Shown here piece by piece: positions 7,561 through 34,221 of a DNA stretch of 34,221 nucleotides. The stretch comes from Promethearchaeota archaeon. GTDB lineage: Archaea; Asgardarchaeota; Lokiarchaeia; Sigyniarchaeales; SOKP01. Within the stretch, counting starts at the first letter, position 1; each line of letters opens with the position of its first letter. The notes under the pieces were generated by a model that did not search any database, was not told the origin of the DNA, and was given only the letters and a program-made list of their open reading frames with translations. The DNA is taken from NCBI GenBank assembly GCA_016840085.1, contig JAEOTA010000011.1, positions 1 to 34,221 of the forward strand, written 5' to 3'. A program made the position numbers and the translations under genes.

Positions 7561-7610
7561 ACAATTTTCTCTCCTTCGAATTTTTATAAACCTTTTAGTG
7601 CTCACTTTAG

Positions 7611-16172: not shown

Positions 16173-17309
16173 ATGTCAAGAAGTATTATAAAAACTCCTT
16201 TTAAAGAATTACCTGAGGCTCTTGTTGAGGATATGTTAATTCAATGCGATGGAATAAGCAAAAAATTGTCAACGACGTTTCAAAATTTATTAGATCTTAA
16301 AAAAAGAGCAAGGAGGATATTAAAGGATAAAGAATTACTAAAAAATGATTCTAAGATTACATTAACACCATCTCACCCAACAACTTGTGGAGTAGACGGA
16401 GCTTTTGCTATAGAGAAACTGCTCTCTACAGATATAGTTGGTATTGCTGGTGTAGCGGTTGAAGGATTAGCTCCTCCAACTGAAGTTCGATATTGGCCAG
16501 TACCATACCATAACTCTAATGTTCTAACTTTAGCACATAATGATACAACAGGTTTAATTTCAAGAGCAATAATGATGTGCATGGAATTAATTTTGGCGGG
16601 AAATGCACCTCACGATGTAGTGTTTATTGATGGTTCATTAATAACGCCTTTTATAAAATTAAATCAAGCTTTAAATCCTAATATTAAGCCAGTGAAGGAA
16701 ATAATGGATGTATTATTTAGAAAATTAAAACCTGCATTGAATTCGTATGAAAAAATACTTAATTCTAAAAAAACTGACCAAATATTCACTGGTGTGCCAA
16801 AATATACTACTATAAATCAAATTTCGCAAGATATTCTGAATTTAAAGGGATTTGAAGATCGTGGATTACTTTCCTTCATTTTAAAAGCAGGTGAATTCGT
16901 AGGACCGTTTAAAATCAAAAAACCAATATCAAAATGGAGTCTAGAGTACTTACCATCTGATACAATAGAACAATTCAAAAGGATCTTAAATGCATTAAAT
17001 GAGATTAATATGGTTTATTATAGACCTTCTGAATTTTTTCCTGTATTAAGAGTGGAAATTGCTCCATCAATAGCAACGAATAATTATAGGTTAGCAATGT
17101 TATTTGAATCTATAAAATTACAATGTGGTGCTCCCGGGATTATAGAACCTTATCCATTATATTTCGCAGATAGAATAGTTAAACATCTAAGAAAAGCCTT
17201 ACCAGCAATTAGAAGAACAGCGACACAGGATATGACATTAAAGTGGAAAGGAGCAGAAGGAAATATTTATTTTGCCTTACATGGATATCGTACTGATTGG
17301 GGGAAATAA
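16173..17309 (+). CDS. nurA: NurA-family nuclease
   Basis: CGVDGA and VVFIDGSL acidic motifs and the C-terminal EPYPLYFADRIVK motif. Directly upstream of HerA. Confidence 0.85.
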   Translation: MSRSIIKTPFKELPEALVEDMLIQCDGISKKLSTTFQNLLDLKKRARRILKDKELLKNDSKITLTPSHPTTCGVDGAFAIEKLLSTDIVGIAGVAVEGLAPPTEVRYWPVPYHNSNVLTLAHNDTTGLISRAIMMCMELILAGNAPHDVVFIDGSLITPFIKLNQALNPNIKPVKEIMDVLFRKLKPALNSYEKILNSKKTDQIFTGVPKYTTINQISQDILNLKGFEDRGLLSFILKAGEFVGPFKIKKPISKWSLEYLPSDTIEQFKRILNALNEINMVYYRPSEFFPVLRVEIAPSIATNNYRLAMLFESIKLQCGAPGIIEPYPLYFADRIVKHLRKALPAIRRTATQDMTLKWKGAEGNIYFALHGYRTDWGK

Positions 17310-17320
17310 GGTGATTAAAA

Positions 17321-19057
17321 ATTAGTAATGTTGATGAGAAACTAGACAAGGCAGAAAGAATAGGAGTAATTGGTTCTCCCTCTTCGACAGGAGAATTAAC
17401 GATTGATATTATTGGAACTGCGGTTAATAAAAAATTAGTGGGTAAGTTAAGCATCTTTAATTTTATGCAAGATGGAATGGCTCATTATGCTTTAGGACAA
17501 ATATCTGAAATCGTGATGCGAAATATTTGGGCTCAAGATCCAACCATGAGAGGTATAATTAGACAAAAAGGTCGAGTTGACCCAATCACAGAAAGACAAG
17601 ATCTTCATATTGCTAAAATGATGGTGAGTTCTGTTTTTGCAAGCAATGATCAACATCTTGTTCCTAGCATACTAGGTACAGTACCAGCAACAGGAACTTC
17701 CATTAAATTATTTGATGAAGAAATAATGGAGAGTTTATTAGATGATTACCAAGAAGAGTTATTTTATTTAGGGAAAGCTTATGGTTCAAACATAAAACTT
17801 CCAATGTGGTTTAAACATTTCGACATTGGAAAGGATGGTATTGGTGAAGCTTATCATATTGGTATTTTTGGTAAAACAGGTTCTGGTAAATCTGTTCTAG
17901 CTAAAATGATTGTGAGTGGTTATGCGAAACATAAAAATATGTCGATTTTTATTTTGGATCCTCAAGGTGAATTCTCTCTTGAGTTTTCTTCTAATGAAAA
18001 ATTAAAACAAATAATTGAGAAAGAAATAGGTAGAAAAATCAAAATCTATACAATACAAAATTTAGTGCTTGATTATTCCGATAGTTTATTCAAAGATCTT
18101 TTGATAGCCTCAGGTTTCTTTAATAGATTAAAAATCTATTATGATGAACATTGGCCTCGTTTTGTAGATGAAATCATTCGAATTCTTAATACTAAGACCA
18201 AGATTTTTGATGGATTTAAACCTTGGGAATATTATAAGAAAGAAGCATTTAAAATAATATGGAATTTAATCCCTGATGACCAATTCTTACAAAGAGTTAT
18301 CTTTACTAAAGAACCAAGAGAAAGAGTCAAGAGTGTATGGCTATCACTAAATGAAGACCTTATGTATGATTTATGGGCAGGAATTACAAATTTGTTTAGC
18401 TATAAAAGAGCTAAAGAAAGTGTTAGATTAACAACTTTATTTGAAAAAGCATCAGAAGGAAATCCTTTGGTTATAATAGATTTATCCTCTAGAGAAAAAC
18501 CTAAAGATATTATATGGAATGATGACATTCAATTAATTGCGATTCAACAATTTCTTAGTAAAATTACGATACAAGCAGAAAATAAATTTAAACAAGGGGG
18601 CAATGTAAACTCTTTAGTTGTAGTTGATGAGGCACATAGATTAGCTCCAAGAGGAAGAATAGAAAATGAGAATATAACCAGAATTAGAACAACCTTTATT
18701 GATGCAATTAGGACCACTCGAAAATTTGGCCTTGGATGGATGTTTATTAGTCAGACGCTTTCAAGTATTCATCATGAAATTATCAATCAAATAAGGGTCT
18801 TTACTTTTGGGTTTGGTCTTGGTTGGGGTACTGAATTACGCGCCCTTCAGGAAATTATAGGAGGAAATAGAGAAGCAATAAGGTTATATCAAAACTTTAA
18901 AGATCCTCAAAGTGGTTTAGGACAAAGAGAATACCCTTTTATGACAATTGGTCCGATTTCTCCTCTTTCATTTTCTGGCACTCCACTTTTTTTCAATGCA
19001 CTTAATTATCCCGAGGAATTTCTACAAATTAATTTTGCTAAGGATGAACAAACTTGA
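17321..19057 (+). CDS. herA: HerA/FtsK-family ATPase (DUF87) with HAS-barrel, probable ATT start
   Basis: HIGIFGKTGSGKS, ILDPQGEF, VVVDEAHRLAP and TRKFGLGWMFISQ motifs. The frame is open upstream of 17438 to ATT 17321 (ISNVDEKLDKAERIGVIGSPSSTGELTIDII, first HAS-barrel strand), with RBS AGGTGA at 17309-17314. Confidence 0.9.
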   Translation: MSNVDEKLDKAERIGVIGSPSSTGELTIDIIGTAVNKKLVGKLSIFNFMQDGMAHYALGQISEIVMRNIWAQDPTMRGIIRQKGRVDPITERQDLHIAKMMVSSVFASNDQHLVPSILGTVPATGTSIKLFDEEIMESLLDDYQEELFYLGKAYGSNIKLPMWFKHFDIGKDGIGEAYHIGIFGKTGSGKSVLAKMIVSGYAKHKNMSIFILDPQGEFSLEFSSNEKLKQIIEKEIGRKIKIYTIQNLVLDYSDSLFKDLLIASGFFNRLKIYYDEHWPRFVDEIIRILNTKTKIFDGFKPWEYYKKEAFKIIWNLIPDDQFLQRVIFTKEPRERVKSVWLSLNEDLMYDLWAGITNLFSYKRAKESVRLTTLFEKASEGNPLVIIDLSSREKPKDIIWNDDIQLIAIQQFLSKITIQAENKFKQGGNVNSLVVVDEAHRLAPRGRIENENITRIRTTFIDAIRTTRKFGLGWMFISQTLSSIHHEIINQIRVFTFGFGLGWGTELRALQEIIGGNREAIRLYQNFKDPQSGLGQREYPFMTIGPISPLSFSGTPLFFNALNYPEEFLQINFAKDEQT

Positions 19058-19130
19058 GATAGTGAATAAAGTTATTCTTAAAAATAACTACTTATTAAAC
19101 TTAATTAATTCAATTTTATTGGGATAAAAT

Positions 19131-20048
19131 ATGGGTGTTGTAATTAGTTTTATTAATTTGAAAGGAGGCGTTGGTAAAACCACATGTTGTGCTAATGTTG
19201 CGGGTGAATTAGCGAGAGAGAATCGAAAAGTATTAGTAATTGATGCGGATCCACAAGCGAATATCTCAACTTTATTAATGGGAATAAAGAAATATCATGA
19301 AAAATTCAATCCAAACAATCAATCTGATGATTATTATAAAGATAGTATATATCAAATCTTTTTGGATGCTATGGAAGAAAATGAAGAAAATAAGAAGTTT
19401 AATTTTGACACAGCAATAATTAAATCAGTAGTTAGTAAAACAGTTCAAGGAACGGAAACCCATCCATTAACTCATCTTGATTTACTCCCAGCTACGCATC
19501 ATTTAATGCAATTAGAACAGAAGATTGTAAATTATGTTAGATCTAGATTTGCTATTCTTGAAAGATTTATAAACCTGATAAAAAATGAATATGATTTTAT
19601 ATTGATTGATTGTCCTCCCAATATTTATACTACAACTCATAACTCCTTATATGCCTCAGATTATTACATAATTCCTACAATACCAGATTACCTTTCGATT
19701 AGTGGATTTCCTCTCCTTATTAATTCTCTTAATCGGACTATTGATATAAAAAAGGAAGAAAAAAATGAACGGGTAATTTTAGCAGGTGTTTTAGTTAATT
19801 TAATGGATATGAGAATTAATGTTCATAAAGACGGATTAGAATCAATTAAACGAGTATTGAGATATTTCCGACAAAATGGATTAGTTGATGAAAATGCTGT
19901 TGTATTTGAGAGTGTTATAACTAATAAAGTAGATGTAAAAAATGCTTCTGGAAATCATTTACCAGTTTGTGTTGATAAACCTCGGTCAAATTCTACTATG
20001 GAATATATGAAATTGTGTAAAGAAATTTTAGAAAGGATTTCAAAATAA
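19131..20048 (+). CDS. parA: ParA/Soj-family ATPase
   Basis: Deviant Walker A NLKGGVGKTT, VLVIDADPQAN and YDFILIDCPP. Confidence 0.92.
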   Translation: MGVVISFINLKGGVGKTTCCANVAGELARENRKVLVIDADPQANISTLLMGIKKYHEKFNPNNQSDDYYKDSIYQIFLDAMEENEENKKFNFDTAIIKSVVSKTVQGTETHPLTHLDLLPATHHLMQLEQKIVNYVRSRFAILERFINLIKNEYDFILIDCPPNIYTTTHNSLYASDYYIIPTIPDYLSISGFPLLINSLNRTIDIKKEEKNERVILAGVLVNLMDMRINVHKDGLESIKRVLRYFRQNGLVDENAVVFESVITNKVDVKNASGNHLPVCVDKPRSNSTMEYMKLCKEILERISK

Positions 20049-20062
20049 CGGAGGTTTTTACT

Positions 20063-20671
20063 ATAGAAAAATCTATTTTCTCATTATTGAATGAAATCAA
20101 ATTAAAAATCCAGTCTAATCTTAACAATTATGATCTTAAACAAATCAATGAATTATTAATAAATTTAGATCAAGAAATAGAGTTATGTGTAAAAATAAAT
20201 GAAGATCTATTAAGATTTTTTAATAAAAAATCAAATTTTAGAACAATAGCTAATCTAAAAGGTTTCTCTACTAACAAACTAAACTATAAAATAAAAAGTA
20301 CTAAACGAGTCGATATAGAAGAAGAATTGGCAAAAATCTCTACGACAAGAAATATCAGCGGTGAAAAATTAAGAACTTTATTAGGGAAACCAAAAATAGA
20401 AGCACAGCAACCTGTTAAGAAAAAAGCACCAAAAAAACCTAGCTCCATAAAAGTTAATGATCAAACTTCGCGATGGTTAAGTCTAATCCCTACCCAGTTG
20501 AAAGATGAGTTAAACGATTTAAACAGATATCCTGATGCTCGAACTTTAAAACAAGCAGCCTACTCTATCCTTAAATCTAATGAAAAAAGGTTTAGAATAC
20601 GTGAGAAAATTATTAATATAATATTAGAACGTATTTCTGAGGAAAAAGCAATAGCAAATTTAGGAAGGTAA
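20063..20671 (+). CDS. Basic hypothetical protein, candidate ParA partner with possible C-terminal HeH/Rho-N-like DNA-binding module
   Basis: Follows parA closely. RBS GGAGGT (20050-20055) sits 7 nt before an in-frame ATA at 20063 (track start TTG 20087). Lys/Pro linker precedes TLKQAAYSIL...REKIINIILERI. Confidence 0.5.
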   Translation: MEKSIFSLLNEIKLKIQSNLNNYDLKQINELLINLDQEIELCVKINEDLLRFFNKKSNFRTIANLKGFSTNKLNYKIKSTKRVDIEEELAKISTTRNISGEKLRTLLGKPKIEAQQPVKKKAPKKPSSIKVNDQTSRWLSLIPTQLKDELNDLNRYPDARTLKQAAYSILKSNEKRFRIREKIINIILERISEEKAIANLGR

Positions 20672-20676
20672 TTATA

Positions 20677-21144
20677 TTGTTCTTTATTGAAAAGGAACCA
20701 AAAATTACTGAAAAAGAAATTCAGAATTTATATCAAACTCACCCATATTTAATTGAAAAGAAATTTCTTAATCAGGAAGTAGTTCCACAATACTCTTTAC
20801 CCTCAGGATTCGCAGATATTGTAGTTTTTTTAGAAAATGAAATCGTAGTAATTGAATTAAAAGTCGAGATTCTTGAAAATCGGCATTTACTACAGTTATA
20901 TGGATATTTAGAAGATATGGAAAAAAAATTCAAGAATATTAAAAGAATTAGAGGAATATTAATTGGTAAGGAGCCTGATAAAGAACTATATTTGATGATT
21001 AAAAATTTCTCATTCGAAATAAAAATACTGGTTTTGAATAAAGAGATTATAACAAAGGTTAAAATTTGTAATAGCTGTAGATTAGCTAATGATTTAAAGA
21101 ATGATTATTGTATTTATTGCTGTAATAAATCATTTTTGTTATGA
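20677..21144 (+). CDS. NucS/DUF91-like PD-(D/E)xK endonuclease with C-terminal Zn ribbon
   Basis: TEKEIQNLYQTHPYLIE, GFADIV, VVIELKV, LLQLYGY and RGILIG motifs, then CNSC...CIYC. Confidence 0.8.
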   Translation: MFFIEKEPKITEKEIQNLYQTHPYLIEKKFLNQEVVPQYSLPSGFADIVVFLENEIVVIELKVEILENRHLLQLYGYLEDMEKKFKNIKRIRGILIGKEPDKELYLMIKNFSFEIKILVLNKEIITKVKICNSCRLANDLKNDYCIYCCNKSFLL

Positions 21145-21323: not shown

Positions 21324-21602
21324 ATGCGTTTTCCAAATGTAAAGGTTAATAGAGAGAATGTAGAAGGAACAAAACTTTGTTATTGGATCAGGAGCAAGAA
21401 AATAATAATCATTGATTATGGTTATCCTAATGGTGATATCCATATATATAGGCATTTAAAAACAACAAATTCAGAGAACTTACGAGATGTATTAGAAGAA
21501 TTATTAGAGAATGAAGATCTCTCTTCTAGGGCATATTTGGAGATTAAAGAACTTAAAGATAATGACGAATTATATAATAAAATTTTCTCTCCAAGATATT
21601 AA
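21324..21602 (+). CDS. Hypothetical protein
   Basis: 92 aa ORF with a GGTGA RBS just upstream. No family recognised. Confidence 0.6.
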   Translation: MRFPNVKVNRENVEGTKLCYWIRSKKIIIIDYGYPNGDIHIYRHLKTTNSENLRDVLEELLENEDLSSRAYLEIKELKDNDELYNKIFSPRY

Positions 21603-21750
21603 ATAAACATACTTTTAGAATTTCCATATATTAAAGTAATAAAAAAAAAATAATAAAAAATAGGTTATTGATTTTTCTCTCTTAATAACTAATAGTGTAT
21701 TAATCTCACTTTTTATTGTTAATTTCAATACTTTTGCTTAGAGCCTCTTT

Positions 21751-22149
21751 TTAACTTAAAAAGATAATAATCATTGAGATCCATAAACTAATAAATAACA
21801 AAGGTAGAAGATATGCTATATGCCTCATTTGAATACCTCTTACATCACCTGAAAATACAGATGGTACACTTCCACTTTTCTCTAAGAGTTTAGCTTCATT
21901 TTTCCATTTTTTAATATATGAACTGCTTCTATGCTGAATTAATAACCATCCAATACTTAATATTAACCCTGAAATAGATATAAAAAATTGAATCGTTAAA
22001 TTTTCAAACTGGCTAATTGCTAATAAAAATATACTTGATACAACCAAAAAAACATTATTTCTTTGCCAATGTAATTTTGCTTCAGATTGTTGTATCTTGA
22101 TTAACTTCTCATGCTTTTTTGCATTACTATCTTCTGTCATGATAATCAA
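21751..22149 (-). CDS. Small 3-TM membrane protein, RipA-family octameric-membrane-protein-like
   Basis: WQRNNVFLVVSSIFL followed by two adjacent TM helices, then W..E..LE and a C-terminal TM helix. Confidence 0.6.
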   Translation of the reverse strand: MIIMTEDSNAKKHEKLIKIQQSEAKLHWQRNNVFLVVSSIFLLAISQFENLTIQFFISISGLILSIGWLLIQHRSSSYIKKWKNEAKLLEKSGSVPSVFSGDVRGIQMRHIAYLLPLLFISLWISMIIIFLS

Positions 22150-22410
22150 AGAAGATTTACTTTCATATAAATCATATGTTATTATAAATATTACACTAAA
22201 TTAAATTACTAATTTATTCTTATTGAAAAAAACACCTTTCTTTAAAGTTCTTTTTAACTTTTCTTTCTAAATTTTTATTAATTTTTTATTTCAGTTTTTC
22301 GCTTGCTTGAAAATGATAAAAAGATTCTTACTTAAAATTTTAATATTATTTTGTATGAGCGAATTGCGCACGACCAGGTGATGTGTGATGGTGATAATTT
22401 ATTGTTTAAA

Positions 22411-23250
22411 TTAATTAAATTCAATAAATTCAAATCTATCTTGGAATAATTCAGCAAATTCTCTATGATCTAGCCAAGTGTCGATTCTTTCTAAGTGCTC
22501 TTCTAAGGAACTAATAGAAATTCCAATGGACCTAAAAAAAAAGTCTTTCTTTAAATTATATTGGTTTATCCTTTGAAGTTTTTTAATCACTGAGAAAAGA
22601 TAATAGCAAGCAGAACCAAATCGTGATGCTCTATACCTTTCGGTAAACTTATCATTACAATTTTTAATAATGTAGATAATAGGATCCAATAAATCTTCTA
22701 AATTTATATTATAGGTCTTGAAAGTATAGTAATTTTCATTTAAATCTTCTAAAAATTCTATTATTTTTATCTTATAGTAATTTGTCATAAATTCATCTCG
22801 TTGTTGTTCATTCAAAAAAGCTGCTGTGAGAAATACCTTAAAATGTCCTAGTTCAATTGTTTTAATCATTTTTGATAAATAATGGATTAATTTTTGGAAT
22901 TCTCGTTTAATTCTTGCATTATTTGTTGACGCTTCCAACAAATTTTTAATTTTACTTATGATATCTTTAAAATCATATCCTAGTGAAACATAAGAAACAA
23001 ATAAGGTTGCAATATAAACTTTTATTCTATCTAATCCTTTTATTTTTTTAAAGCTATGGTCATTTTGTCGTAAAAGTCTTTTTGCATGTAGTTTAACTTC
23101 ATTTTCTATATTTAAGCAACTATTAGAACATAAAGTATCAAATGTACCAAGTAAAAGTTGTCTATCTTTTGATATATTATCCAATAATTTTAACATATCA
23201 AAGAAATTTGGTAAATTTTTTTTGCTACTATTATTATTATTTTCTATCAT
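22411..23250 (-). CDS. Divergent TFB/TFIIB-like tandem cyclin-fold protein lacking the Zn ribbon
   Basis: FDTLCSNSCLNIENEVKLHAKRLL..KIKGLDRIKVYIATLFVS and ASRFGSACYYLFS...IGISISSLEEHLERI align by eye with TFB cyclin repeats 1 and 2. Confidence 0.45.
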   Translation of the reverse strand: MIENNNNSSKKNLPNFFDMLKLLDNISKDRQLLLGTFDTLCSNSCLNIENEVKLHAKRLLRQNDHSFKKIKGLDRIKVYIATLFVSYVSLGYDFKDIISKIKNLLEASTNNARIKREFQKLIHYLSKMIKTIELGHFKVFLTAAFLNEQQRDEFMTNYYKIKIIEFLEDLNENYYTFKTYNINLEDLLDPIIYIIKNCNDKFTERYRASRFGSACYYLFSVIKKLQRINQYNLKKDFFFRSIGISISSLEEHLERIDTWLDHREFAELFQDRFEFIEFN

Positions 23251-23296
23251 TTTTATCTAAACCTTAAGAAAATAAACAAAATATAGAGAAAATTAT

Positions 23297-24151
23297 TTAA
23301 AATCCTCTAACGCGGATTCTGTTTCTCTTTCTGTCTCTTAGACGCGTTAACGCATTAATAACCGTATCTTTAAGATATAGAGTCTCATTAGCGAGGTCAA
23401 CACGAGCAATAATATTAGTTTTTCCTGGAGATCTAATTGAAAACCCTAAAAGTTCATAAAAAAAGTTATTTTGAGTTCCTTTTGATAATTTTATTCTTTC
23501 GTGTTGTTGATTTATTAAGGTAAGGTCAATTTGGTTCGGAATAGGATTTCCAGTTCTTTCAGATTCAATGATTATGCTAGTAAATAAAAGAAAAAGAGAA
23601 ATTGCCTTACGAGGCAGAATTCCCCGCGTGGGATCAGCCATTTTGCGATGAATAAGAGCATTAGTTAGAACTATACTTATTATACCAAAAAAACGTTCTG
23701 CAGGTTCTTTAATCTCGTTTGGATTTGTTGTCAATGCATCTCTTAACTGTAAAGCTAAAGTTTGTGCCCTGGGAGTCCTGTCATATCTTTCTGGATCTGT
23801 AGGATTACGGGTCACTAAATCACCTTGAACTAAGACATCGATAATATCCTCAGATGGAGTTTTTGTGAAATTGAAATTATCCAAATCTTCCTTTGTAATA
23901 TGATCTCTTGTCAAATCTGAGACAAAATGTAGCATTACTTGAACTGTAGTATTATAATACCCAGATAATTGTAAATAACTCGCATATATAAAGGAAAATT
24001 CTTTAAGAATTGCTGCTATATATGGATGTGGACCTGCACCTGAAAAATAATCATCTATTATTTCCTCAATATAGAATACAGCATCATAGCAGGTTTCACA
24101 TAAATTACTTGTTCCTAATAAAGGTGTTTTATCACAAAATATACATGACAT
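23297..24151 (-). CDS. Hypothetical protein with N-terminal CxxC..CxxC Zn finger, putative winged-helix regions and Arg-rich tail
   Basis: CIFC-x11-CETC at the N-terminus. HITKEDL..SEDIIDVLVQGDLVTR..RYDRT has a wHTH-like pattern. Tail is RLRDRKRNRIRVRGF. Confidence 0.5.
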   Translation of the reverse strand: MSCIFCDKTPLLGTSNLCETCYDAVFYIEEIIDDYFSGAGPHPYIAAILKEFSFIYASYLQLSGYYNTTVQVMLHFVSDLTRDHITKEDLDNFNFTKTPSEDIIDVLVQGDLVTRNPTDPERYDRTPRAQTLALQLRDALTTNPNEIKEPAERFFGIISIVLTNALIHRKMADPTRGILPRKAISLFLLFTSIIIESERTGNPIPNQIDLTLINQQHERIKLSKGTQNNFFYELLGFSIRSPGKTNIIARVDLANETLYLKDTVINALTRLRDRKRNRIRVRGF

Positions 24152-24338
24152 GAATTTTTCACTAATTTTCTTAATTAATTAATGGACTTTTTTGTTTAAT
24201 ATAATTTATTATAAAAAAGACACCTAAATATATAATCTTCATATTTTAATGTTCTTATTTATTAACAGTATTTGTCAATAAATTACACTATTTAGCATAG
24301 ATGAAATTTTAAATATAAGATAATTTAAATTTAAATTA

Positions 24339-26294
24339 TTATATTTCAATTTTTTCAATAGGGTCATCTGTGACACGTGTCAAAACGACAAATAAATCAT
24401 CCTCAACTGTTAGCTCTTTCAAATACTCAAAAAATTTTTTCTGATTCTGAGGACTAAATTCTAAAAATAAATCATCACCTATAAAAAAGGGAACATTCTC
24501 AAGATAAGTCTTTTTACATGAAATTTGTAATATTGCTCCAATTAATGCTCGCTCTGCCCCTGATAAGGACCCTAATTCTTGAATGGCCCCACCTTTTCGA
24601 ACAACAGTTAGATGATAATCTTCCAAATTAATATATATGTCTTCAAATTCTTGAAGTTCTAAATTTTTCATAATATTTTTAATATATGTATTAAACTTCT
24701 TTCCTGCTCCTAATCTTTGTTCATTCATTTTATCAATTAAGTAAGTGTCAATTTTCTCCAATTCATTCTCTAATTTTGATGTTATGCTCTCAGCCTTTTC
24801 TAAAGGTATCATTATATCAAGAAATTCAATAAAAGACTTTTCTTTTATTAATTCTTTGTATTTTTCAATATCTATCTCAATTTTCTTAATTGAATCATTG
24901 ATCTCCTTTTCTTTCTCCTCAAAAGGTCTCATAATATCAAATTTTTTTATATCAGCACTTATTTTTTCAAGGTTTTTTTCTAATTTATTAATATCATTTT
25001 GAATTGAATTAATATTTTCATTTATTGTTTTAAGTTCCTTCCGCTTCATTATCTTCTGTTCTTCAGCATTCTCGATTATTTTTTTCATCTGACCCATTTT
25101 TGTCTTTGATTCATCTCGCGCTCCTTCTTTATGTTTAATTTTTTGAATTTCTGCTTTAATATTATTCAAATCATCAATTTTAAAATAGATTTTTTCTTTT
25201 TCTTTTAAAATTTCACCTCTTTTATCTCGAATTTCTTCTAATTTCTTAACAAAAAATTCTTCAGTGAGAGTCACTTTACTTTCACAAACTGGACAAGTAC
25301 CTTGTTCCAGTGAAGCTTTAATTAAAACCTCGTAAATAGTCCCATATAAATCTAATTTACCTTGTTCAGCTGAAATTATATTCAATTTTTCTTGAAGTTT
25401 GTCTTTTTCTTCCTCAAAATTTCTATTTTTTTTAATTTCCTTAAGACTAATAATTTCTTTTTCGATAGAATCAATCTCTTGTTGAATCTTGGAAATTTCA
25501 ATAGTATAATCAGCAACTTTTTTGTCCTCTTGTTCTATTTCTGACTGAAATTTGTTTAATTTTTTCTCTTCAGTTTTTTTAAGAGCATTTTTTTTTTTAA
25601 TTTCTGCGTTTACATCTTTCTTATCTTTTTGTAACTTTTCTAATTCAGGAAACTGAGAGATATCTATTTTTGCCTTTTCTTCCTGAACATATTTTAATTC
25701 ATTATCCAAATTTAATTTTTCCTGTGTTAATGAATCGATTTTTCTTAAGTAATCACTAAGCTGATTCTTAATTGAATCAATATAATTAATTGCATTCTCG
25801 TTAATACTGATATATGAATTTATTTTAGATTTTAATTGTTCATATGCTCCCGCAGATGACATTTCTGATACTATCCATTGAAAATTATCATTTCCAGTAG
25901 TTATATATTCTTGAATTTTAGAATTTTTTACTAGCATAGCAGCATATAGAAAATTCTCATTACCTTTATGGTTCGTTTTGACTGTACCATCTTTATTGAG
26001 AATTAATTCAATTTTTTCTTGGTTATAAGATAAACTAATCATTGCTTTATCTTTAAAAGCGTTAATTATAGGTGATTTTTTTGATTTCATTGGTAAAATA
26101 CCAAATTTTATTGCTTCATTTATTATATTCTCAGATTTTATAGGACAAGAAATAGCTGCGGCTAATGATTTTATTATTGTGCTTTTTCCCGAATAGTTTT
26201 TACCAGCAAAAATAGAAATTTTTCCACTTGTCAAATCAATTTCTCTTAGACCTTGATGTCCACCTACGTCCTTAAGGATTAATTTAGCGTTCAT
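24339..26294 (-). CDS. Archaeal SMC-related ATPase (ClsN/Sph-like) with central Zn hook
   Basis: Walker A AGKNYSGKS, long coiled coils with central CPVC (nt 25284-25295), signature LSGAE and Walker B PFFIGDD. Start revised to ATG 26294 (651 aa), which overlaps the stop of an upstream 48-aa ORF (ATGA). Confidence 0.88.
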   Translation of the reverse strand: MNAKLILKDVGGHQGLREIDLTSGKISIFAGKNYSGKSTIIKSLAAAISCPIKSENIINEAIKFGILPMKSKKSPIINAFKDKAMISLSYNQEKIELILNKDGTVKTNHKGNENFLYAAMLVKNSKIQEYITTGNDNFQWIVSEMSSAGAYEQLKSKINSYISINENAINYIDSIKNQLSDYLRKIDSLTQEKLNLDNELKYVQEEKAKIDISQFPELEKLQKDKKDVNAEIKKKNALKKTEEKKLNKFQSEIEQEDKKVADYTIEISKIQQEIDSIEKEIISLKEIKKNRNFEEEKDKLQEKLNIISAEQGKLDLYGTIYEVLIKASLEQGTCPVCESKVTLTEEFFVKKLEEIRDKRGEILKEKEKIYFKIDDLNNIKAEIQKIKHKEGARDESKTKMGQMKKIIENAEEQKIMKRKELKTINENINSIQNDINKLEKNLEKISADIKKFDIMRPFEEKEKEINDSIKKIEIDIEKYKELIKEKSFIEFLDIMIPLEKAESITSKLENELEKIDTYLIDKMNEQRLGAGKKFNTYIKNIMKNLELQEFEDIYINLEDYHLTVVRKGGAIQELGSLSGAERALIGAILQISCKKTYLENVPFFIGDDLFLEFSPQNQKKFFEYLKELTVEDDLFVVLTRVTDDPIEKIEI

Positions 26295-26437
26295 TTTAGC
26301 CATTCCTTTATTTTGTTTGTTATAATTTCCTGACATTTGTTTTTAAAATCATTAATTTTAATTGAATTAATTTGGATCTCAATTTCTTTAATTATTAATT
26401 CAGAAATTAAGTCTTCAGAGTCTTTCTTTTTTGCCAT
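26291..26437 (-). CDS. Unannotated 48-aa helical protein translationally coupled to the SMC gene
   Basis: MAKKKDSEDLISELIIKEIEIQINSIKINDFKNKCQEIITNKIKEWLK*. Strong RBS GGAGGT (26451-26446) 8 nt upstream, and its TGA overlaps the SMC ATG. Confidence 0.8.
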   Translation of the reverse strand: MAKKKDSEDLISELIIKEIEIQINSIKINDFKNKCQEIITNKIKEWLK

Positions 26438-26485
26438 AATATATTACCTCCTAATTTTCATTATTAATTTTTTCTAACAATTACT

Positions 26486-27490
26486 TTAAAAGTTTTTATA
26501 TAGATTTAATTCAGCTCCAATTAGGATTAATGGTTTTTTAATTCTTTTAAACAGACCAACATTACTATTATATTGGTTATTAAATACCTCCACAATAGCT
26601 TTTCTAAAATTTTGAGTTTGATTAATTGGTCCTAAATATTTATATAGAATCATTACTCCTGCAGCTCTATTAGAAATTTTATGAGGTTTTTTTGTACTTC
26701 TATCAGTATATAAAAGAGTAGGTTTTTTTATGATAGAAAAATTTATTGGATAAATATAATCTTCATTCTCATTCAAGGATCTATTATCGGCATATTCTAA
26801 GAATGTATTCCTAATATCATTGAGTATATCTGGACTTGGTCGTTTATAAACATAATTTATACCAGAATCATTAGGTCGTTTTTTTCTAAATTTTCTTTCG
26901 ATACCAAGGAGGCTCCTTCTAAAATCATTGGGATCTGCCTTAATGTCACCTTCAAATAACATATATACTAAAAAATAGTTTTGATTTAAGATTTCCTCTA
27001 AAAAATCAGATTCTGAACATAATAATATTTTATAATCATCAATATCAATAAATATCTCTTCCTCTTTTAACTTAAATTTCTTATCTAGTATTTTAATATA
27101 ATCTTCAATATAATTTATTAATCCCATATACTTGTATATGATCATTATTTCTGGAGGTTTATTTATAAATCTTGTGTGTCTAAATCTCTTACCAAATTTA
27201 TAACTCTCAGCTTCATGAGTATGAGTTATTTTTTTAATAATTGAGAAATCTATGGGATATAGCAAAGGTTCTTCCTGTATTTCTTCTTTTCTTTTAAGAA
27301 TTTCTTTATTAAATTCAAAATCAATTTTTTTAAGAATATTTTGAAATTTCACCTTTTTTCCATTTTCTTTATAAAGATTATATAGATTTTCATCACCTTT
27401 TAATGAAACTAAAAGAGATTCATTATTAAGCTTTCTTTCATCTTTGAAATCAAGAATTATCACAATATAATTCTCATTCATTATTTCCAA
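26486..27490 (-). CDS. Hypothetical protein made of two tandem ~165-aa repeats
   Basis: YPIDFSIIKK..IMIIYKYMGLIN (from aa 78) recurs as YPINFSIIKK..VMILYKYLGPIN (from aa 247). Starts 1 bp after the AAA gene. Confidence 0.75.
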   Translation of the reverse strand: MEIMNENYIVIILDFKDERKLNNESLLVSLKGDENLYNLYKENGKKVKFQNILKKIDFEFNKEILKRKEEIQEEPLLYPIDFSIIKKITHTHEAESYKFGKRFRHTRFINKPPEIMIIYKYMGLINYIEDYIKILDKKFKLKEEEIFIDIDDYKILLCSESDFLEEILNQNYFLVYMLFEGDIKADPNDFRRSLLGIERKFRKKRPNDSGINYVYKRPSPDILNDIRNTFLEYADNRSLNENEDYIYPINFSIIKKPTLLYTDRSTKKPHKISNRAAGVMILYKYLGPINQTQNFRKAIVEVFNNQYNSNVGLFKRIKKPLILIGAELNLYKNF

Positions 27491-27491
27491 A

Positions 27492-28271
27492 TTATTTTAA
27501 CATCTCCTTAACGTATATTTTAGTTATAAAATGTTGAATATCTCTTATATTTGGAGGATCTCTTTGGATTTTTTTTTCTTCAATTTCTTTAGCTAATTGA
27601 TCAAGTGATTCATTTACCCGAGTTTCTAAATCTTTTTTACCTGTAATACTTAAACTTTTAATTATATCCCAGGCAATTTTCTTCAGATCTCCAAGAGGGA
27701 TAGGCTTAATCTCATAAAAATATAGTCTGGATCGAAGAGCATCATCGATTAAATCGGTTCTATTTGAAGTAGCAATAACAATTACGTTTGTTGGATTTAT
27801 TCTATCAAGTTCATGAAATAATACTGAATTAATTGAATAATGCCACTCCACAGCAACAGTAGAACCTCTTTTAATCATTATACAATCAATATCATCTAAA
27901 ATTAAAATATGTTTTACCTCCTCATCATTAGATATTTTAAAAAGATTTTTTATAGCGTTTTCAGCATCTCCCCATCTAGCAGCAGCAATATTTGCACTAT
28001 CTACAAGTAAATATTTTAGTTTTTTACCTTTTTCCTTTAATTGTTCTGCGACTAGCCTAGCTGTTTGTTTTGCTAACTCTGTCTTTCCAGTTCCAGGAGG
28101 TCCTTCTAATAAAAAACCCCTAAAAGGGATGTCTATTCTAGATGGATTAAAGAAAAAATGAAAAATAATTTTCTTCATCTCCATTAAAACCTGATTTAAT
28201 TGACCTTTAAATGTATAAGGTTTAATATCCAATGCATTAAGTTCAGGAATTGATTTTCTTATTAAACTCAA
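27492..28271 (-). CDS. Stand-alone classical-clade AAA ATPase (Cdc48/PAN-like single domain)
   Basis: GFLLEGPPGTGKT, pore loop ARWGDAE, Walker B variant ILILDDID, and SRH ATSNRTDLIDDALRSR. TTG start with GAGGT RBS. Confidence 0.9.
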   Translation of the reverse strand: MSLIRKSIPELNALDIKPYTFKGQLNQVLMEMKKIIFHFFFNPSRIDIPFRGFLLEGPPGTGKTELAKQTARLVAEQLKEKGKKLKYLLVDSANIAAARWGDAENAIKNLFKISNDEEVKHILILDDIDCIMIKRGSTVAVEWHYSINSVLFHELDRINPTNVIVIATSNRTDLIDDALRSRLYFYEIKPIPLGDLKKIAWDIIKSLSITGKKDLETRVNESLDQLAKEIEEKKIQRDPPNIRDIQHFITKIYVKEMLK

Positions 28272-28391
28272 TTTTAATAAACCTCATTAATTTAATTTCT
28301 TTTTATTGATTTAGACATTTTCCTACTTTTCTATTTATCAGCTTTTTTTATATATAAATATTTTAGATTTTTGTAAAAGATAAAAATATAT

Positions 28392-29891
28392 CTATTTATC
28401 TAATATCTTCATTATGAAATTAATATTTTCATTAATCACATGATTCCAACATTTAAAATCAATTAAGGTGAATCCTTTATCAGTGCTAATGAAAATAATA
28501 AAGTCATCAAAGGCATAAGAAGCTGTTTGATTAGTTTTTAAAAAAATTTTAGGTTTATCCTTAAAATAATGATCTAATATTTTTAGAACTCGCGAAATAG
28601 ACTTCCTAGTTTTTATTAAACCTAGGTTTTCTCTTGGCGTAATTTCTTTAGTATTTTTAAAATGAAAAGAATTTTTTAAATTAATCTCCTTAAATTTTTT
28701 TCTAAGATATGAAATTTCATTATTTAACATATTATATTCATTAAACTTATATCTAATAGGAGAATAATTTCTTGCAACACATCCAGCTCTTAATTTATTC
28801 GATCGAAGGCAATTTAAACAATAGTTACACTTTGAGAAGTCTATTTTCATTTGATTATTTACAATTTTTATGGCAGAATTAAAGCATAGTGATCTACAGG
28901 CACCACAACCGACACAATTTACTTGTTTTTCACAATATATTAGTACTTTTTTAATATCCAAATGAGATGATAAGAATTCGATTTTCTTCTCAGTCTTATT
29001 TATTAAAAAATTTGTAGATTTTTCTTTTAATAGTTTTAAATTACCTTTTAATTTTGAAAATGTTTTGAGATCCTCTGTTTTAATTCTAAAAAACATAGAA
29101 TTCTTTTCTTTCCTAAACTCGATAAAACCCTTTATAATATTTTTTATTGGCAGGGCATTTTTCGTCCATGCATAATTTTCTATATAATCATCTATATTTC
29201 TCACAGTAATGCCATCGAATTTTTCAATGTTCTTTCTGATTGTAATCTCTAATTGACTATATAAAGTTTTAAAATGCTTTTTAAGCCTTTCAAATCCTTC
29301 ACTTTTCTGATATGGACACATCCAACATCCTAATCTCTCATACCCTTTATCGTAAAGAGGATTATAAGGAAGATTATGATGATGTATATATTCCCACACG
29401 TCTTCTGTAGTCCAATGTAAAATAGGATTTATCTGGAAAGCAGGAATAAGGGGATTTTTACTAACTTTTGAATAATTATGTCTTTTACGGGATTCTTGCG
29501 ATCTTATTCCAGTTATCAAATATTTAATTTTATTTTTTAAGACATAATGAGATAAAGGTCCAAATTTATAGACTTCACAACACCATCTAAGTCTTTGAGA
29601 AGGAAAAGCAAGATGATTAACTAAATCTAAAAATTCTCTTGGAGGTTTGACCTGTGTTATTTTAATTTGATAAAATTTTTCTAAATTTTTTATATATTCT
29701 TCTGTACCTGGAAATGTTAGTGAGGTATTGCTAAACACAAAATTCTTTATCCCGACTTTTAATGAGATATCTAAGACAATTAAACTGTCTTTTCCACCGG
29801 ATATACTTACAGAGCTATTCTGAATATAATTTTGTAAAAAATTCATTGCTTCTAATGATTTATAATATATATTATCAGTAGTAATATTCAT
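28392..29891 (-). CDS. PAPS-reductase-family (PP-loop) protein with fused 4Fe-4S ferredoxin domain
   Basis: SISGGKDS, RWCCEVYK, TGIRSQESRKR, NPILHWT and RLGCWMCP motifs, plus ferredoxin CVGCGACRSLC...CNYCLNC. Confidence 0.92.
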   Translation of the reverse strand: MNITTDNIYYKSLEAMNFLQNYIQNSSVSISGGKDSLIVLDISLKVGIKNFVFSNTSLTFPGTEEYIKNLEKFYQIKITQVKPPREFLDLVNHLAFPSQRLRWCCEVYKFGPLSHYVLKNKIKYLITGIRSQESRKRHNYSKVSKNPLIPAFQINPILHWTTEDVWEYIHHHNLPYNPLYDKGYERLGCWMCPYQKSEGFERLKKHFKTLYSQLEITIRKNIEKFDGITVRNIDDYIENYAWTKNALPIKNIIKGFIEFRKEKNSMFFRIKTEDLKTFSKLKGNLKLLKEKSTNFLINKTEKKIEFLSSHLDIKKVLIYCEKQVNCVGCGACRSLCFNSAIKIVNNQMKIDFSKCNYCLNCLRSNKLRAGCVARNYSPIRYKFNEYNMLNNEISYLRKKFKEINLKNSFHFKNTKEITPRENLGLIKTRKSISRVLKILDHYFKDKPKIFLKTNQTASYAFDDFIIFISTDKGFTLIDFKCWNHVINENINFIMKILDK

Positions 29892-30231
29892 TATATCAGA
29901 GTTTTTTGTAAAAAGGCTAAATAATATTAGGTTTTATTGATTTAATAAAGTTTTTTAATAGACGACAAAAAATGTAATAGATAAATTATGTTTTCAGGAG
30001 GACAGAATTTTTTTGTTTAAAAAGAACAATTATCTGATAATAATTCTCTAAATCAAATAATTTATTCCTGATATACCTTATTTCCTAAATTTAAAGTAAA
30101 AAAACTGAAATTTTTTTAAAAATTTTTCTTGTTTAAAATCTCTCATGGACAGATATTGATATAGTATGAATTCTTTAAATTGGGGAAGAAAATTACCAAA
30201 ACTGTGTCTTTATTTTGAGTACCTTTGCATT

Positions 30232-30330
30232 ATGAAATTTTGCTGTAATATCTGTGAATTTAAAATTAAAGTAGCAAAAGAAGGTTTTTATTATTGTCCT
30301 ATATGTGATGATTTTAATTATTTTTCTTAG
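30232..30330 (+). CDS. Possible unannotated small Zn-ribbon protein
   Basis: MKFCCNICEFKIKVAKEGFYYCPICDDFNYFS* has two CxxC pairs. An in-frame ATG at 30166 would extend it to 54 aa. Confidence 0.45.
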   Translation: MKFCCNICEFKIKVAKEGFYYCPICDDFNYFS

Positions 30331-30354
30331 GATTACAAGATTCATATCTTAAAA

Positions 30355-31247
30355 TTAAAAAATAATTCTAAGCCCTTGTTCCTTTAATTTTTCAATGCAT
30401 TCTGGAATTTCAATCCAGTAATTTGCTTTTAAATAAGTATTTCAAGACTTTTTAAGTTCTCAACGCATTCAGGTAAATTTTTTAATTTATTATTTCTTAG
30501 ATTCATTTTTTTTAACATCAATAATTCTCCGATTGAATCTGGAATTTCTACCAACTTATTCGAGCTTAGATTTAGATATTTCAATTTCATAAGGAGCCCT
30601 ATTGCGTTTGGCAACTTCACGATGTTATTTAATCGCAAATCCATGCATTCAAGGTTAGAAAGAAATCCAATATTTTTTGGCAAAGTTTCAAGGTTGTTTC
30701 TCCTAAACGCTAAATTCTTAAGCGATTTGATTTTTAGAATTTCACGTGGCAAGGTGTTCAATCCACAGTTGAAAAGGCTTAATCCAGTAATTTCGTCCCC
30801 TTCCTTAATGTAGCATGTCGCACTTACAGTAAATTCCTCTTTCAGCGGGATGGATTTATTGATTAACTTTTCAAGTGAAAGAATGATATTTCTTTCTGTA
30901 TAATCCACGTCAGGTATATCTGAGATTCCACCGTGCTTATCATATCCTTCTAATTTAGGCAAAGGTTCACCACATTTCGAGCAAAACTGAATCTAGGGTG
31001 AACAAAGAAAACTACAATGTGGACAAAGTATTTTTACAATTTTATGTTTAAAGGGGCGTTCTACTGGCTTATCTTCTTCAATTTTTCCTGTTATTACAGT
31101 CTTTAAATCTAAGAACTCTTTATAGAAACGATTTTCCAAATAGCCTTTATCTTCATATAATTTCAATAATTCTCGCAATTTCTCATTAGTTTCAGAATTC
31201 TCTTCCAGAAATTTTATTTTTTTAAAGAATTTGAAAAATATACTCAA
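30355..31247 (-). pseudogene. Zn-ribbon + leucine-rich-repeat protein gene broken by an in-frame TAG and a frameshift
   Basis: ORFs 30993..31247 and 30429..30962 are in frame: CPHCSFLCSP*IQFCSKCGEPLPKLE. LRRs follow (LxxLxLxxNxL). A 1-nt shift near 30432 restores LKANYWIEIPECIEKLKEQGLRIIF* ending at 30355. Confidence 0.85.
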
Positions 31248-31646: not shown

Positions 31647-33983
31647 TTATCCCCAACGATTTTTTATATATTTGAGAGCTTCTCTTGTATTTAATTTAAT
31701 ACTCGACGCCTCAGTTCTAATAATAATTACTTCTTCATCTTTGTTTATTTTTAAATAAATTGGTTCCTCACTCTTTTTTACAGTAATAATACAGATTTCT
31801 TTATTTTCAATCTTTTTAAAATCAAACTTAATAGTTTTTGGATTATTATATTCCTTCCCTATGTAGTTGTTTATTATTTCAACTAATTTCAATTTAAAAC
31901 CATCTCGATTCTTTTTTCTCAATGATAAATAATCATTGTTTAAACCTAAAATTTGACCATCATCATCAACACCAATAAATAATTTGCCCCCTTCAGTATC
32001 TAAAAATGCTACAATGGTTTTTGCAATTTCAAGCTCAAGTTCTTTATTAGGTTTTTTTTGACTATAGTCATATCTAACTGATGATTTAAACTCGGTATTG
32101 AGATTTTCCCCATTTAATATGATTTCCTTAATAGGATCCCTCATTACTCCCTTCTTCTTAATAGAATTATCAAAATCTTTTATTTGGGATAGATAATTTG
32201 ATAATAATTCATTTACCAACCTAATTATATTGATATTTGAAGTTTTTGGAGAAATAATTTTATCTTTTATTTTCTTCAGATTATTAAAATTGAGGGATGA
32301 AATAAAAATACTATTTTTTGGAAAATATTTACCCATTATATTTTCTGGTATTTCTCTTGCCTCTTTATCAAATAAAGCCCAATTAGTCATACCTCCTTTA
32401 AATAAATCATTTACCTTCATAATCTTTTTCCTAATAATATCAAAAGGTATTAAATTATTGCTGTTTAATTTTGTATTATCATTAATAATACCCAAATATC
32501 CGTTTATAAACCATTCTTGAATTATTGATAAAATCTCATTAGAAAATTTCAAAGATTGTTTTAATTGGGTCTTCATTTCCTTTCCATCCTTTTCTTCATC
32601 AAAAATCTCATGTTCTATTCTTTCTGATTTAACAAATCTTTTTAATCTAAATATTGGTCCTCGCCTATCATGAGGAATTGCATCTAAACACCTTCTAAAG
32701 GCAGAGTCCAAAGCTAATTTACCTTCATAATCATGAAAAAGAGGTGGATTGTATTCTGGTTTTATATTTGACAAAGCAGAGAGAGAAAATTTCTCATATA
32801 TAAACCTATAAGTTAAAGCCTTATAGTTTTTAAGACCTTTTGAATTAAATGGAATAGATCCTTTATTATAAATATCTTCAATTAAACCAAAAATTTCATT
32901 AAACCATTTTTGATCCTCATTCTCTCTTAAATATTTAAATATGGGCACATAATCTAAGGCAGGGGTGCCACTAAATATTCTTTCGATATCATCAAAATAA
33001 GTTTCTTCGTATCTCTTCCTTCTTATATCTTTAGTACAAAAGTCAAGAAAGTCATTGAATTTTTGTTTGTTATATTCAAAATTTTTTATAAAATTTGTTA
33101 AATAATCATCAAAAAATGCATCAATATATTCTTGTGTACTCGCTTCCCCAAGTCTTTTTCCAAAAAAATCTACTATTCCTGGACATAGGAAATATTTCAA
33201 TAATTCTTGCATAAATTCTGGTTTAATGGCATATTGAAGTCTTTTTTTATAAAGTTGATAAATATCTGATGTATTCCAATAGTTATAAATAATCCATTTA
33301 TCAAACACACCTCTGCCTGTACTGCTTTTTAAAGCAGCAAAATTCTCCCAATCTTTATGTCCTATAACAAAGATAAAAATTGGGATTTCAGCAAAATATC
33401 TTTCATCCTCCCAATATCCCTGAAAATTGCGCCAAAATTCAAAAAACGGTGTAAATTGTGCTTCATCTGTTATAACATTAGTTTGATCAAATTCGACAAT
33501 ATATTTAGCTGAAGGTTGTTGGTTCAAATATCTTTTATAAATTTTACATATTAAATACAATTTTTCGAGATAATTTCCTAATTTTCGATCTTGTGGGTGA
33601 AATCCCTTCTCGTTTTGAAATTTTTTAATTTCCTCTAATACAATTTCTTTAAAATCTTGTTTTTCTACAAATGTTAAATGGGTTAACCATTGATTATATA
33701 TCCATTCATCAATTTCTTTCACACTAAGATATTGTGCCATTTTTGAATTAATTGTTAATACAATACAATTATCATAGCATTGTTTCAATTCTAAATTTAT
33801 ACATTTACCAAGTTCAGTTTTACCTATTTTAAAATCTCCTAAAATGGCAATCCTTTTTCCAAAAAAGTATGTTTCAAACTCTAATTGATGATTAACTAGT
33901 TTACTTAATGGATCAAATATATCAGAAATTAAATCTTTTTGATTAACTTTAACAAATAACTCATTTCTATTATTTTTCGACAT
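31647..33983 (-). CDS. P-loop NTPase fused to C-terminal Schlafen/AlbA_2 domain
   Basis: Walker A AILGDFKIGKT and Walker B-like YIVEFDQ. C-terminal GENLNTEFKSS..IAKTIVAFLDTEGGKLFIGVDDDGQILG is AlbA_2. Start MSKNN at 33983 is tentative (track start 34037). Confidence 0.85.
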   Translation of the reverse strand: MSKNNRNELFVKVNQKDLISDIFDPLSKLVNHQLEFETYFFGKRIAILGDFKIGKTELGKCINLELKQCYDNCIVLTINSKMAQYLSVKEIDEWIYNQWLTHLTFVEKQDFKEIVLEEIKKFQNEKGFHPQDRKLGNYLEKLYLICKIYKRYLNQQPSAKYIVEFDQTNVITDEAQFTPFFEFWRNFQGYWEDERYFAEIPIFIFVIGHKDWENFAALKSSTGRGVFDKWIIYNYWNTSDIYQLYKKRLQYAIKPEFMQELLKYFLCPGIVDFFGKRLGEASTQEYIDAFFDDYLTNFIKNFEYNKQKFNDFLDFCTKDIRRKRYEETYFDDIERIFSGTPALDYVPIFKYLRENEDQKWFNEIFGLIEDIYNKGSIPFNSKGLKNYKALTYRFIYEKFSLSALSNIKPEYNPPLFHDYEGKLALDSAFRRCLDAIPHDRRGPIFRLKRFVKSERIEHEIFDEEKDGKEMKTQLKQSLKFSNEILSIIQEWFINGYLGIINDNTKLNSNNLIPFDIIRKKIMKVNDLFKGGMTNWALFDKEAREIPENIMGKYFPKNSIFISSLNFNNLKKIKDKIISPKTSNINIIRLVNELLSNYLSQIKDFDNSIKKKGVMRDPIKEIILNGENLNTEFKSSVRYDYSQKKPNKELELEIAKTIVAFLDTEGGKLFIGVDDDGQILGLNNDYLSLRKKNRDGFKLKLVEIINNYIGKEYNNPKTIKFDFKKIENKEICIITVKKSEEPIYLKINKDEEVIIIRTEASSIKLNTREALKYIKNRWG

Positions 33984-34221
33984 TTTCTGAATATAGATAC
34001 GATCTTCAAAAAAGAATGTGGATGAAATTATAAACACCTTAAAATTTTAGCCTCAAGTTAAAAATATTGAATCTGGAATATTTTGTTTTTATTTATCAGT
34101 ATCTAATGAAGTATTTATTTATCTTTAATTTTTTATTTTTTTTATTCCGACATTAATCTCACTTTAACTGTTATATATCATTCATTTTTGGAAAGATGTG
34201 AAAAATGTCTCCACTAGCATA

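Follow-up and report, generated by a model that had tools for sequence, protein, structure and literature searches.

The window analysed here is a stretch of 34,221 nucleotides from a Promethearchaeota archaeon (contig JAEOTA010000011.1 of assembly GCA_016840085.1), and this work concerns a run of seven minus-strand genes within it, at 22411-29891, that combines an SMC-like ATPase with a PAPS-reductase family enzyme (Table 1). The host genome comes from marine sediment, comprises 4.68 Mb with 29.5% GC and is 98.8% complete. Re-reading of the open reading frame positions placed all seven co-oriented genes where the original prediction had them, with the lengths and gaps it gave: from the PAPS end to the end of the 279-aa gene, the intergenic distances are 120, 1 and 48 bp, an ATGA overlap, 187 and 46 bp.

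Table 1. Coordinates of the cassette genes and of neighbouring island genes in the window
Feature	Position	Strand	Basis or remark
PAPS-reductase (PP-loop) + alpha/beta + 2x[4Fe-4S] ferredoxin protein	28392..29891	-	putative sulfur-inserting enzyme
Minimal single-ring AAA+ ATPase, classical clade (Cdc48/TRIP13-like)	27492..28271	-	PF00004, motifs
Tandem-duplicated ferredoxin-like (RRM-type) protein, 334 aa	26486..27490	-	alignments, AlphaFold2 (AF2) model
48-aa two-helix microprotein, translationally coupled to SMC	26291..26437	-	ribosome-binding site, ATGA overlap
ASRP-family (ClsN/Sph-related) zinc-hook SMC-like ABC ATPase, 651 aa	24339..26294	-	NF045487, motifs
Zn-finger + tandem winged-helix protein, Arg-rich tail, 284 aa	23297..24151	-	37 representatives, AF2 model
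279-aa helical protein, possibly cyclin-fold/TFB-core-like	22411..23250	-	accessory, close relatives only; TFB homology weak
Whole cassette extent	22392..30094	.	match to single contig of independent study
Schlafen/AlbA_2 protein	31647-34037		island neighbour
Leucine-rich repeat (LRR) protein	30429-30962		island neighbour
SIR2-like-TPR and TPR proteins	4597-9350		island neighbours
Nmad2	781-1482		island neighbour

The seven genes form a discrete cassette. In an independent study, a single 8.8-kb contig matched exactly the whole extent given in Table 1 (445 differences, ~94% DNA identity) and carried unlike DNA beyond it, and this span agreed with the boundaries drawn earlier. The independent contig holds the same block between different flanks, which marks it as a discrete unit, and the cassette appears to be mobile.

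When the SMC-like ATPase was compared with protein families, the best match was ASRP (NF045487; 220.7 bits, E 3.6e-65, with a family cut-off of 300), and Rad50 reached 34.6 bits. The layout is that of ASRPs: Walker A (GKNYSGKST) is N-terminal, the signature (LSGAE) and Walker B (FIGDD) are C-terminal, and the coiled coil carries a central zinc hook (CPVC); an H-loop His was not found in the protein. Asp occupies the Walker B Glu position in 21 of 25 aligned relatives. In a tree that left out ClsN and Sph themselves, the cassette protein clustered with other ASRPs, apart from a ~700-aa family, and the PAPS-linked ASRPs formed one clade separate from PAPS-free ASRP operons. Judged by its sequence, the protein is a member of the ASRP (ClsN/Sph) zinc-hook ATPases, in a subclade below the family cut-off, and its earlier description as ClsN/Sph-like thus holds. 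The ASRP family includes ClsN (PMC9389158); the paper describing the family names no partner genes according to a term search (PMC9389158).

Other ASRP and SMC-like operons were seen along the way. Elsewhere in the host genome (L059; G000:C53 ~88100-94900) lies another ASRP operon, unrelated to the cassette, that consists of a 377-aa gene, AAA and ASRP. The gene after it encodes a protein of 812 aa that ends in TFIIB cyclin repeats, and L033:13922-16909 is a distant relative. In the ASRP operons of L042 (11930-14044) and L043, the accompanying genes are a histone doublet and a pair of 273-aa paralogues. In L051-L057 the ~700-aa SMC-like gene is conserved in a 580/390/440/700-aa operon that occurs in many genomes of the class; it is unannotated there and looks housekeeping.

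The first gene of the cassette encodes a PAPS reductase domain (Pfam PF01507, E=1.6e-43) together with Fer4. Among PADLOC models, BrxP ranked first (2.2e-49, residues 23-376), before SspD (2.5e-19) and DndC (2e-8), and the score against the DndC model TIGR03183 was 26.5 bits with a cut-off of 290. The SGGKDS, WCC and GCWxC motifs and the ferredoxin cysteines were invariant across 28 homologues, and all are present in the cassette enzyme, which has a stand-alone BrxP/SspD-like architecture without DUF4007.

The PAPS gene was found in five loci reached via the Zn/winged-helix protein (L062, L064, L065, L165, L167) and in three GTDB genomes reached via ASRP (G055, G057, G131); in L166 it was not in the 20 kb seen. 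In a search started from the PAPS protein, 15 of 26 in-clade matches carried module genes on the same contig, six more carried PglZ, DndB, HerA or TGT genes on contigs too short or cut, and for one match the contig was cut. Beside the 54 more distant PAPS matches, module genes at E<1e-8 were found in 0 cases. In a quick IQ-TREE run, in which long branches meet at the root and L132 is likely a long-branch artefact, the module-linked PAPS proteins all fell to the same side of one long branch with an SH-aLRT of 100. Over 19 loci, the distances in the ASRP and PAPS trees were closely correlated (Mantel r=0.92, 0/2000 permutations), even as the PAPS gene was positioned upstream of, downstream of or divergent to the module. 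Since its clade tracks the ASRP clade despite these changes in gene order, the PAPS gene is, as far as sequences tell, no chance neighbour but a clade of its own co-inherited with the ASRP clade. The original prediction had included it as a system member that might prove to be a chance neighbour, and it is the membership that survived. This co-inherited ASRP-PAPS clade is what the analysis newly adds. The GC content of the PAPS-linked contigs ranged from 24 to 51%, which suggests that several host lineages carry such modules. Directly after the PAPS gene, a cysteine desulfurase (TIGR01977 above cut-off, with catalytic Lys and Cys motifs) was present in L065, L084 and L090; the host of the cassette has an IscS-type desulfurase gene at C49:59827-60936.

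Two kinds of in-clade PAPS locus have other surroundings. At L081:9938-14421 the neighbours of the reductase are TcmP and an ABC ATPase that resembles arcadin-4/Rad50, so a different ATPase may here follow the same logic, and one of the module-free reductases of L100-L102 lies near a MADS2-like adenine methylase.

The remaining genes of the core encode smaller partners. The AAA+ protein matched PF00004 (E=1.3e-20), CDC48 (2.7e-17) and TRIP13 (1.2e-18), has a WG pore loop and a Walker B DDID, and is 57-61% identical to its counterparts in close loci. The halves of the 334-aa protein are 29% identical, which verifies the internal duplication proposed for it; each copy is a ferredoxin-like domain of the RRM type, ~160 aa in length, with an extended beta-hairpin, and distant loci have this domain singly. 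The AF2 model of this protein (pLDDT 87) gave ferredoxin-like folds as best matches (Z<=8.0), and the top Foldseek match was Csm3/RAMP, a weak one (E=6e-3). Two identities were rejected for it: RAMP/Cas7 kinship (TM 0.34, tied with generic ferredoxin folds) and DndE, since it models as a ferredoxin fold instead. HORMA was considered because a TRIP13 match of the AAA+ could point to a HORMA-TRIP13 pair (CBASS type III), and it was not among the matches listed for this ferredoxin-fold neighbour. The microprotein is preceded by a GGAGGT ribosome-binding site and aligns as two helices; its stop overlaps the SMC ATG at 26294, which sets the SMC length at 651 aa. Equivalents of 42-52 aa lie immediately upstream of ASRP in 18 loci.

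For the Zn/winged-helix family 37 representatives were collected, and the AF2 model of the 284-aa cassette protein (pLDDT 94) backed the Zn-finger and winged helix assigned to it earlier. Its fold matches were generic winged helix-turn-helix (wHTH) proteins at Z 5-6.7, and the scores of Nse1 (Z 6.2, rmsd 3.5, 81 aligned) and JetB (Z 5.9) were tied with generic regulators. In distant loci AAA is preceded by a 285-aa gene to which the protein is paralogous (HHalign 96.8%). It is a candidate DNA-recognition or KITE-like subunit. The 279-aa protein was 30-36% identical in six loci and 59% in L062. The labels that the original prediction gave to the PAPS/Fe-S, AAA, duplicated, ClsN/Sph-like SMC and Zn/wHTH proteins stood, whereas TFB homology is unproven: the sequence has no TFIIB (PF00382) match and no Zn ribbon, HHalign against the host TFBs, of which the genome carries many paralogues, gave a probability of only 2-6% (E 0.006-0.02), and a PDB sequence search with the family returned no significant match. 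It is a lineage-restricted accessory of close relatives. A cyclin fold is plausible but unproven, because in L166 the same slot holds a TFB-like gene (E 4e-7).

Gene order recurs in related metagenomic loci, as expected of the conserved multi-gene system that had been proposed. Five of the loci L033, L034, L036, L038, L039 and L041 hold all seven genes in cassette order, and the sixth ends at the AAA gene. Fuller loci add a STAND-like gene and PglZ ahead of the PAPS gene and 241-aa and 59-aa genes trailing the module, and the space from PAPS to AAA is filled by HerA-like and NurA genes and one for a DGQQR protein of DndB/DpdB-like type; PglZ was found in L033-L039, L079, L080, L085 and L166. 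The DndB/DpdB-like (ParB-like) partner scored best as DpdB (1.8e-24, 7e-29), and a GmrSD/SspE-like gene lies near L033. The larger added genes (PglZ, HerA, NurA, DndB-like, 241-aa) had no counterpart across the 98.8%-complete host genome, and compact distant loci are likewise without them. Because a 7015-bp contig with zero differences spans 23538-30552 and crosses the junction from the PAPS gene to the upstream LRR gene, the absence of PglZ here is not an assembly gap. The copy studied here is thus a short form, whereas its fuller relatives hold PglZ, DndB/DpdB-like and HerA-NurA genes; the absence of PglZ and DndB noted earlier applies to this copy and not to the family. L062 has the same short form (58-65% protein identity, last two genes inverted) and the independent contig has it at ~94% identity, so the short form is a lineage rather than an accident. 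The module is rare, with the ferredoxin-fold partner in 4/400 and the Zn/wHTH protein in 2/400 phylum genomes. ESM Atlas feature searches gave scores no higher than 0.82, and pattern scans across genome contigs and viral contigs gave no match; no RNA data set was listed as holding the sequence.

Among the variants, an ASRP form with two single ferredoxin-fold genes, DUF5591 and TGT (L048, L050, L160 and L161 in G055 and G131, and L086) also has HerA-like, DpdB-like and PAPS reductase genes and is possibly a combined deazaguanine/phosphorothioate island. L049:11437-15642 (G057) holds an ASRP module with PAPS, an EndoIII-like glycosylase and a C5 cytosine methylase.

Altogether, we give a probability of roughly one half to the reading that the cassette is a mobile phosphorothioate-type module for modification of self DNA in which ASRP replaces DndD/SspC. 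In the established biochemistry of Dnd, Ssp and BREX-4, and by experiment in BREX-4, sulfur insertion into the DNA backbone needs at least an ATP pyrophosphatase of the PAPS-reductase family together with a P-loop NTPase and a local or housekeeping cysteine desulfurase (PMC11185695), and the BREX-4 BrxP has the same domain layout as the cassette PAPS enzyme (PMC12839542); from these two matches we infer phosphorothioation. The cysteine desulfurase, DndB/DpdB-like, PglZ, TGT and methylase neighbours in relatives also favour modification. In the proposed mechanism, a zinc-hook ASRP dimer with the microprotein would clamp and scan DNA, and the Zn/winged-helix and ferredoxin-fold proteins would recognise the target in place of DndE/SspB. 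The Fe-S PAPS-reductase would take sulfur from the host IscS-type desulfurase and then mark host DNA, and the small AAA+ ring would remodel or release the complex. PglZ, HerA-NurA and DndB/DpdB-like proteins would be optional restriction effectors in fuller relatives, and the seven-gene form a modification-only version whose effector, if any, would lie elsewhere in the island. Such a chemical self-mark on DNA would probably be part of anti-virus defence.

Several observations weigh against this reading. Housekeeping-like archaeal PRK13795 proteins, with no function assigned, share the PAPS-Fer4 architecture and outscore BrxP slightly (191 vs 166 bits). Four of the 26 in-clade PAPS loci (L081, L100-102) are without the module, and the three desulfurase loci are sisters and so represent one gain. 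Physical linkage or hitch-hiking also produces shared trees, and congruence alone does not equal joint function, although the PAPS gene was retained through repeated moves and orientation changes. The seven genes contain no nuclease. In both AAA+ and ASRP the catalytic Glu of Walker B is replaced by Asp, so their unfoldase and ATPase activities are unproven and only predicted. Finally, G055 and G131 add TGT and DUF5591, and G057 adds a C5 methylase, which means that other chemistries may use the scaffold.

The last point leads to an alternative that we regard as unlikely yet worth weighing, namely that ASRP is a DNA-scanning platform for another modification, such as the insertion or tailoring of 7-deazaguanine (Dpd-like) or base thiolation/adenylation, with the PP-loop enzyme adenylating the base and not the backbone. 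TGT and DUF5591 do lie beside the module in G055, G131 and L086, and the best DpdB score of the ParB-like partner and the C5 methylase of G057 agree with it; however, the window and most loci are without TGT, and the only biosynthetic enzyme directly after PAPS is the cysteine desulfurase. We give little weight to surveillance or silencing of foreign DNA in the manner of Wadjet, Smc5-6 or coalescin, in which ASRP, winged-helix and AAA proteins would sense DNA shape and PAPS, rather than marking self DNA, would act as an effector or in signalling, by consuming nucleotides or thiolating proteins or tRNA. In its favour, other ASRP operons of the class (L042-L047, L059-L061) have no PAPS gene but retain AAA and partners without annotation, the tandem wHTH is similar to KITE subunits, though at Z values that are generic, and the cassette is followed here by a gene for an 8xMP membrane protein, which also occurs in L034 and L064. 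On the other hand, kleisin and JetD nuclease were not found, the desulfurase, DndB-like and PglZ partners point toward modification systems, and pairs of PAPS-reductase and NTPase form phosphorothioate experimentally (PMC11185695). It is improbable that the cassette is a coalescin-like accessory that organises the chromosome or, through a TFB-like subunit, is linked to transcription: ClsN belongs to the ASRP family (PMC9389158) and TFB-like genes follow ASRP in the second host operon and in L166, but the rare and patchy distribution (4/400 and 2/400 phylum genomes), the island location, the mobile, discrete cassette and the weak TFB homology make this alternative of the original prediction less likely. 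Least credible is a decaying remnant of a larger PglZ/DndB locus, which would account for the added genes without counterpart in the genome, since all frames and invariant residues are intact, the short form recurs in L062 and the independent study, and compact distant loci lack the same genes.

If phosphorothioation by the cassette is correct, archaea, probable Asgard hosts among them, would use the coalescin family in the epigenetic marking of self and non-self. Most ASRPs have no assigned function or partners. The set is compact and clonable (~7 kb in L065 including the desulfurase), with a direct chemical read-out, and current defence annotation would miss it. With somewhat less confidence than even odds, we propose a fourth, archaeal phosphorothioation machinery in which the place of DndD/E or SspB/C is taken by a zinc-hook SMC-like motor of the coalescin/Sph family, a dedicated AAA+ remodeller and new subunits that bind DNA. 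The platform would be swappable between phosphorothioate, 7-deazaguanine and methyl marks, its effectors being PglZ or HerA-NurA, and one ASRP branch would thereby gain its first biochemical function.

Elsewhere in the island, the McrBC said to lie next to the cassette is 6.7 kb away and has only an AAA_5 match, with no McrC match. The N-terminal ~90-aa domain of this McrB-like protein (11336-14251) is 42% identical to that of an Mrr/FokI-type nuclease near a related cassette (L041:9925-12054). Positions 16173-21144 hold a NurA-HerA-ParA-194aa-NucS-like run without Mre11/Rad50, whose NurA and HerA did not match those of the fuller loci and are therefore not orthologues. A 92-aa gene and the 8xMP membrane gene (21324-22149) follow the cassette; both are found near L034, and 8xMP follows PAPS in L064. 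The motif AACGGTTA occurs in three intergenic regions of the island (10701, 15739, 21247), its longer forms on this contig only; none flanks the cassette, and most related loci lack it.

Compared with known systems, the cassette fits none of the described ones that could be found, as had been claimed, and defining features of Dnd, Ssp, BREX-4 and Wadjet are missing from it. A term search of Dnd and BREX surveys, with the literature on ABC ATPase classification outside its coverage, yielded no ASRP-AAA-PAPS operon. With Wadjet (JetABCD) and Lamassu it shares an SMC-like ATPase with a winged-helix partner in an island, and LmuB is the best PADLOC match (4e-13), but the 651-aa protein has a zinc hook instead of the hinge of the >1000-aa Wadjet/MukBEF SMCs, is about half the length of JetC, and no JetD or LmuA effector is present. 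The likeness to SspABCD-E comprises an SspD-like enzyme, a desulfurase, a wHTH partner and the GmrSD/SspE-like gene near L033, whereas PADLOC gave no match to SspC (Orc/Cdc6-type) or SspB. DndABCDE and CxC-DndE (PbeABCD; PMC10853773) likewise join a PAPS-family enzyme to a ~650-aa coiled-coil ABC ATPase and small partners, and relatives of the cassette have DndB-like and desulfurase genes on a scaffold that recruits several modification enzymes. However, the ATPase is an ASRP and not DndD/CxC (DndD E=2e-4 over 42 residues only, PbeC 3.5e-3), the enzyme is nearer BrxP than DndC, DndE, the obligate partner of the ATPase in Dnd with its two ribbon-helix-helix domains, had no match, the adjacent proteins modelling as ferredoxin-fold and Zn/wHTH, and AAA+ and Zn/wHTH are extra.

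BREX type 4 (BrxP-BrxC-PglZ-BrxL) is a phosphorothioate system (PMC11185695, PMC12839542), and the cassette shares with it the enzyme of PAPS-reductase, alpha/beta and ferredoxin domains, of BrxP type according to PADLOC, an optional cysteine desulfurase and, in fuller relatives, PglZ with an upstream STAND-like gene. It differs in having no DUF4007 fusion, BrxC (Orc/Cdc6 DUF6079) or BrxL, since BrxC, BrxL and DUF4007/BrxA gave no PADLOC or NCBIfam match in the seven genes or the genes added in fuller loci, and PglZ is missing in this copy; what the cassette has instead is an ABC ATPase of the ASRP family, accompanied by a minimal AAA protein, a ferredoxin-fold protein and a microprotein. With the ASRP family itself (Sulfolobus ClsN/coalescin, Halobacterium Sph1/2), it has in common the split Walker A/B head, the coiled coil, the zinc hook and the length of ~650 aa, whereas the cassette form scores under the family cut-off and belongs to a distinct subclade that moves together with a modification enzyme.

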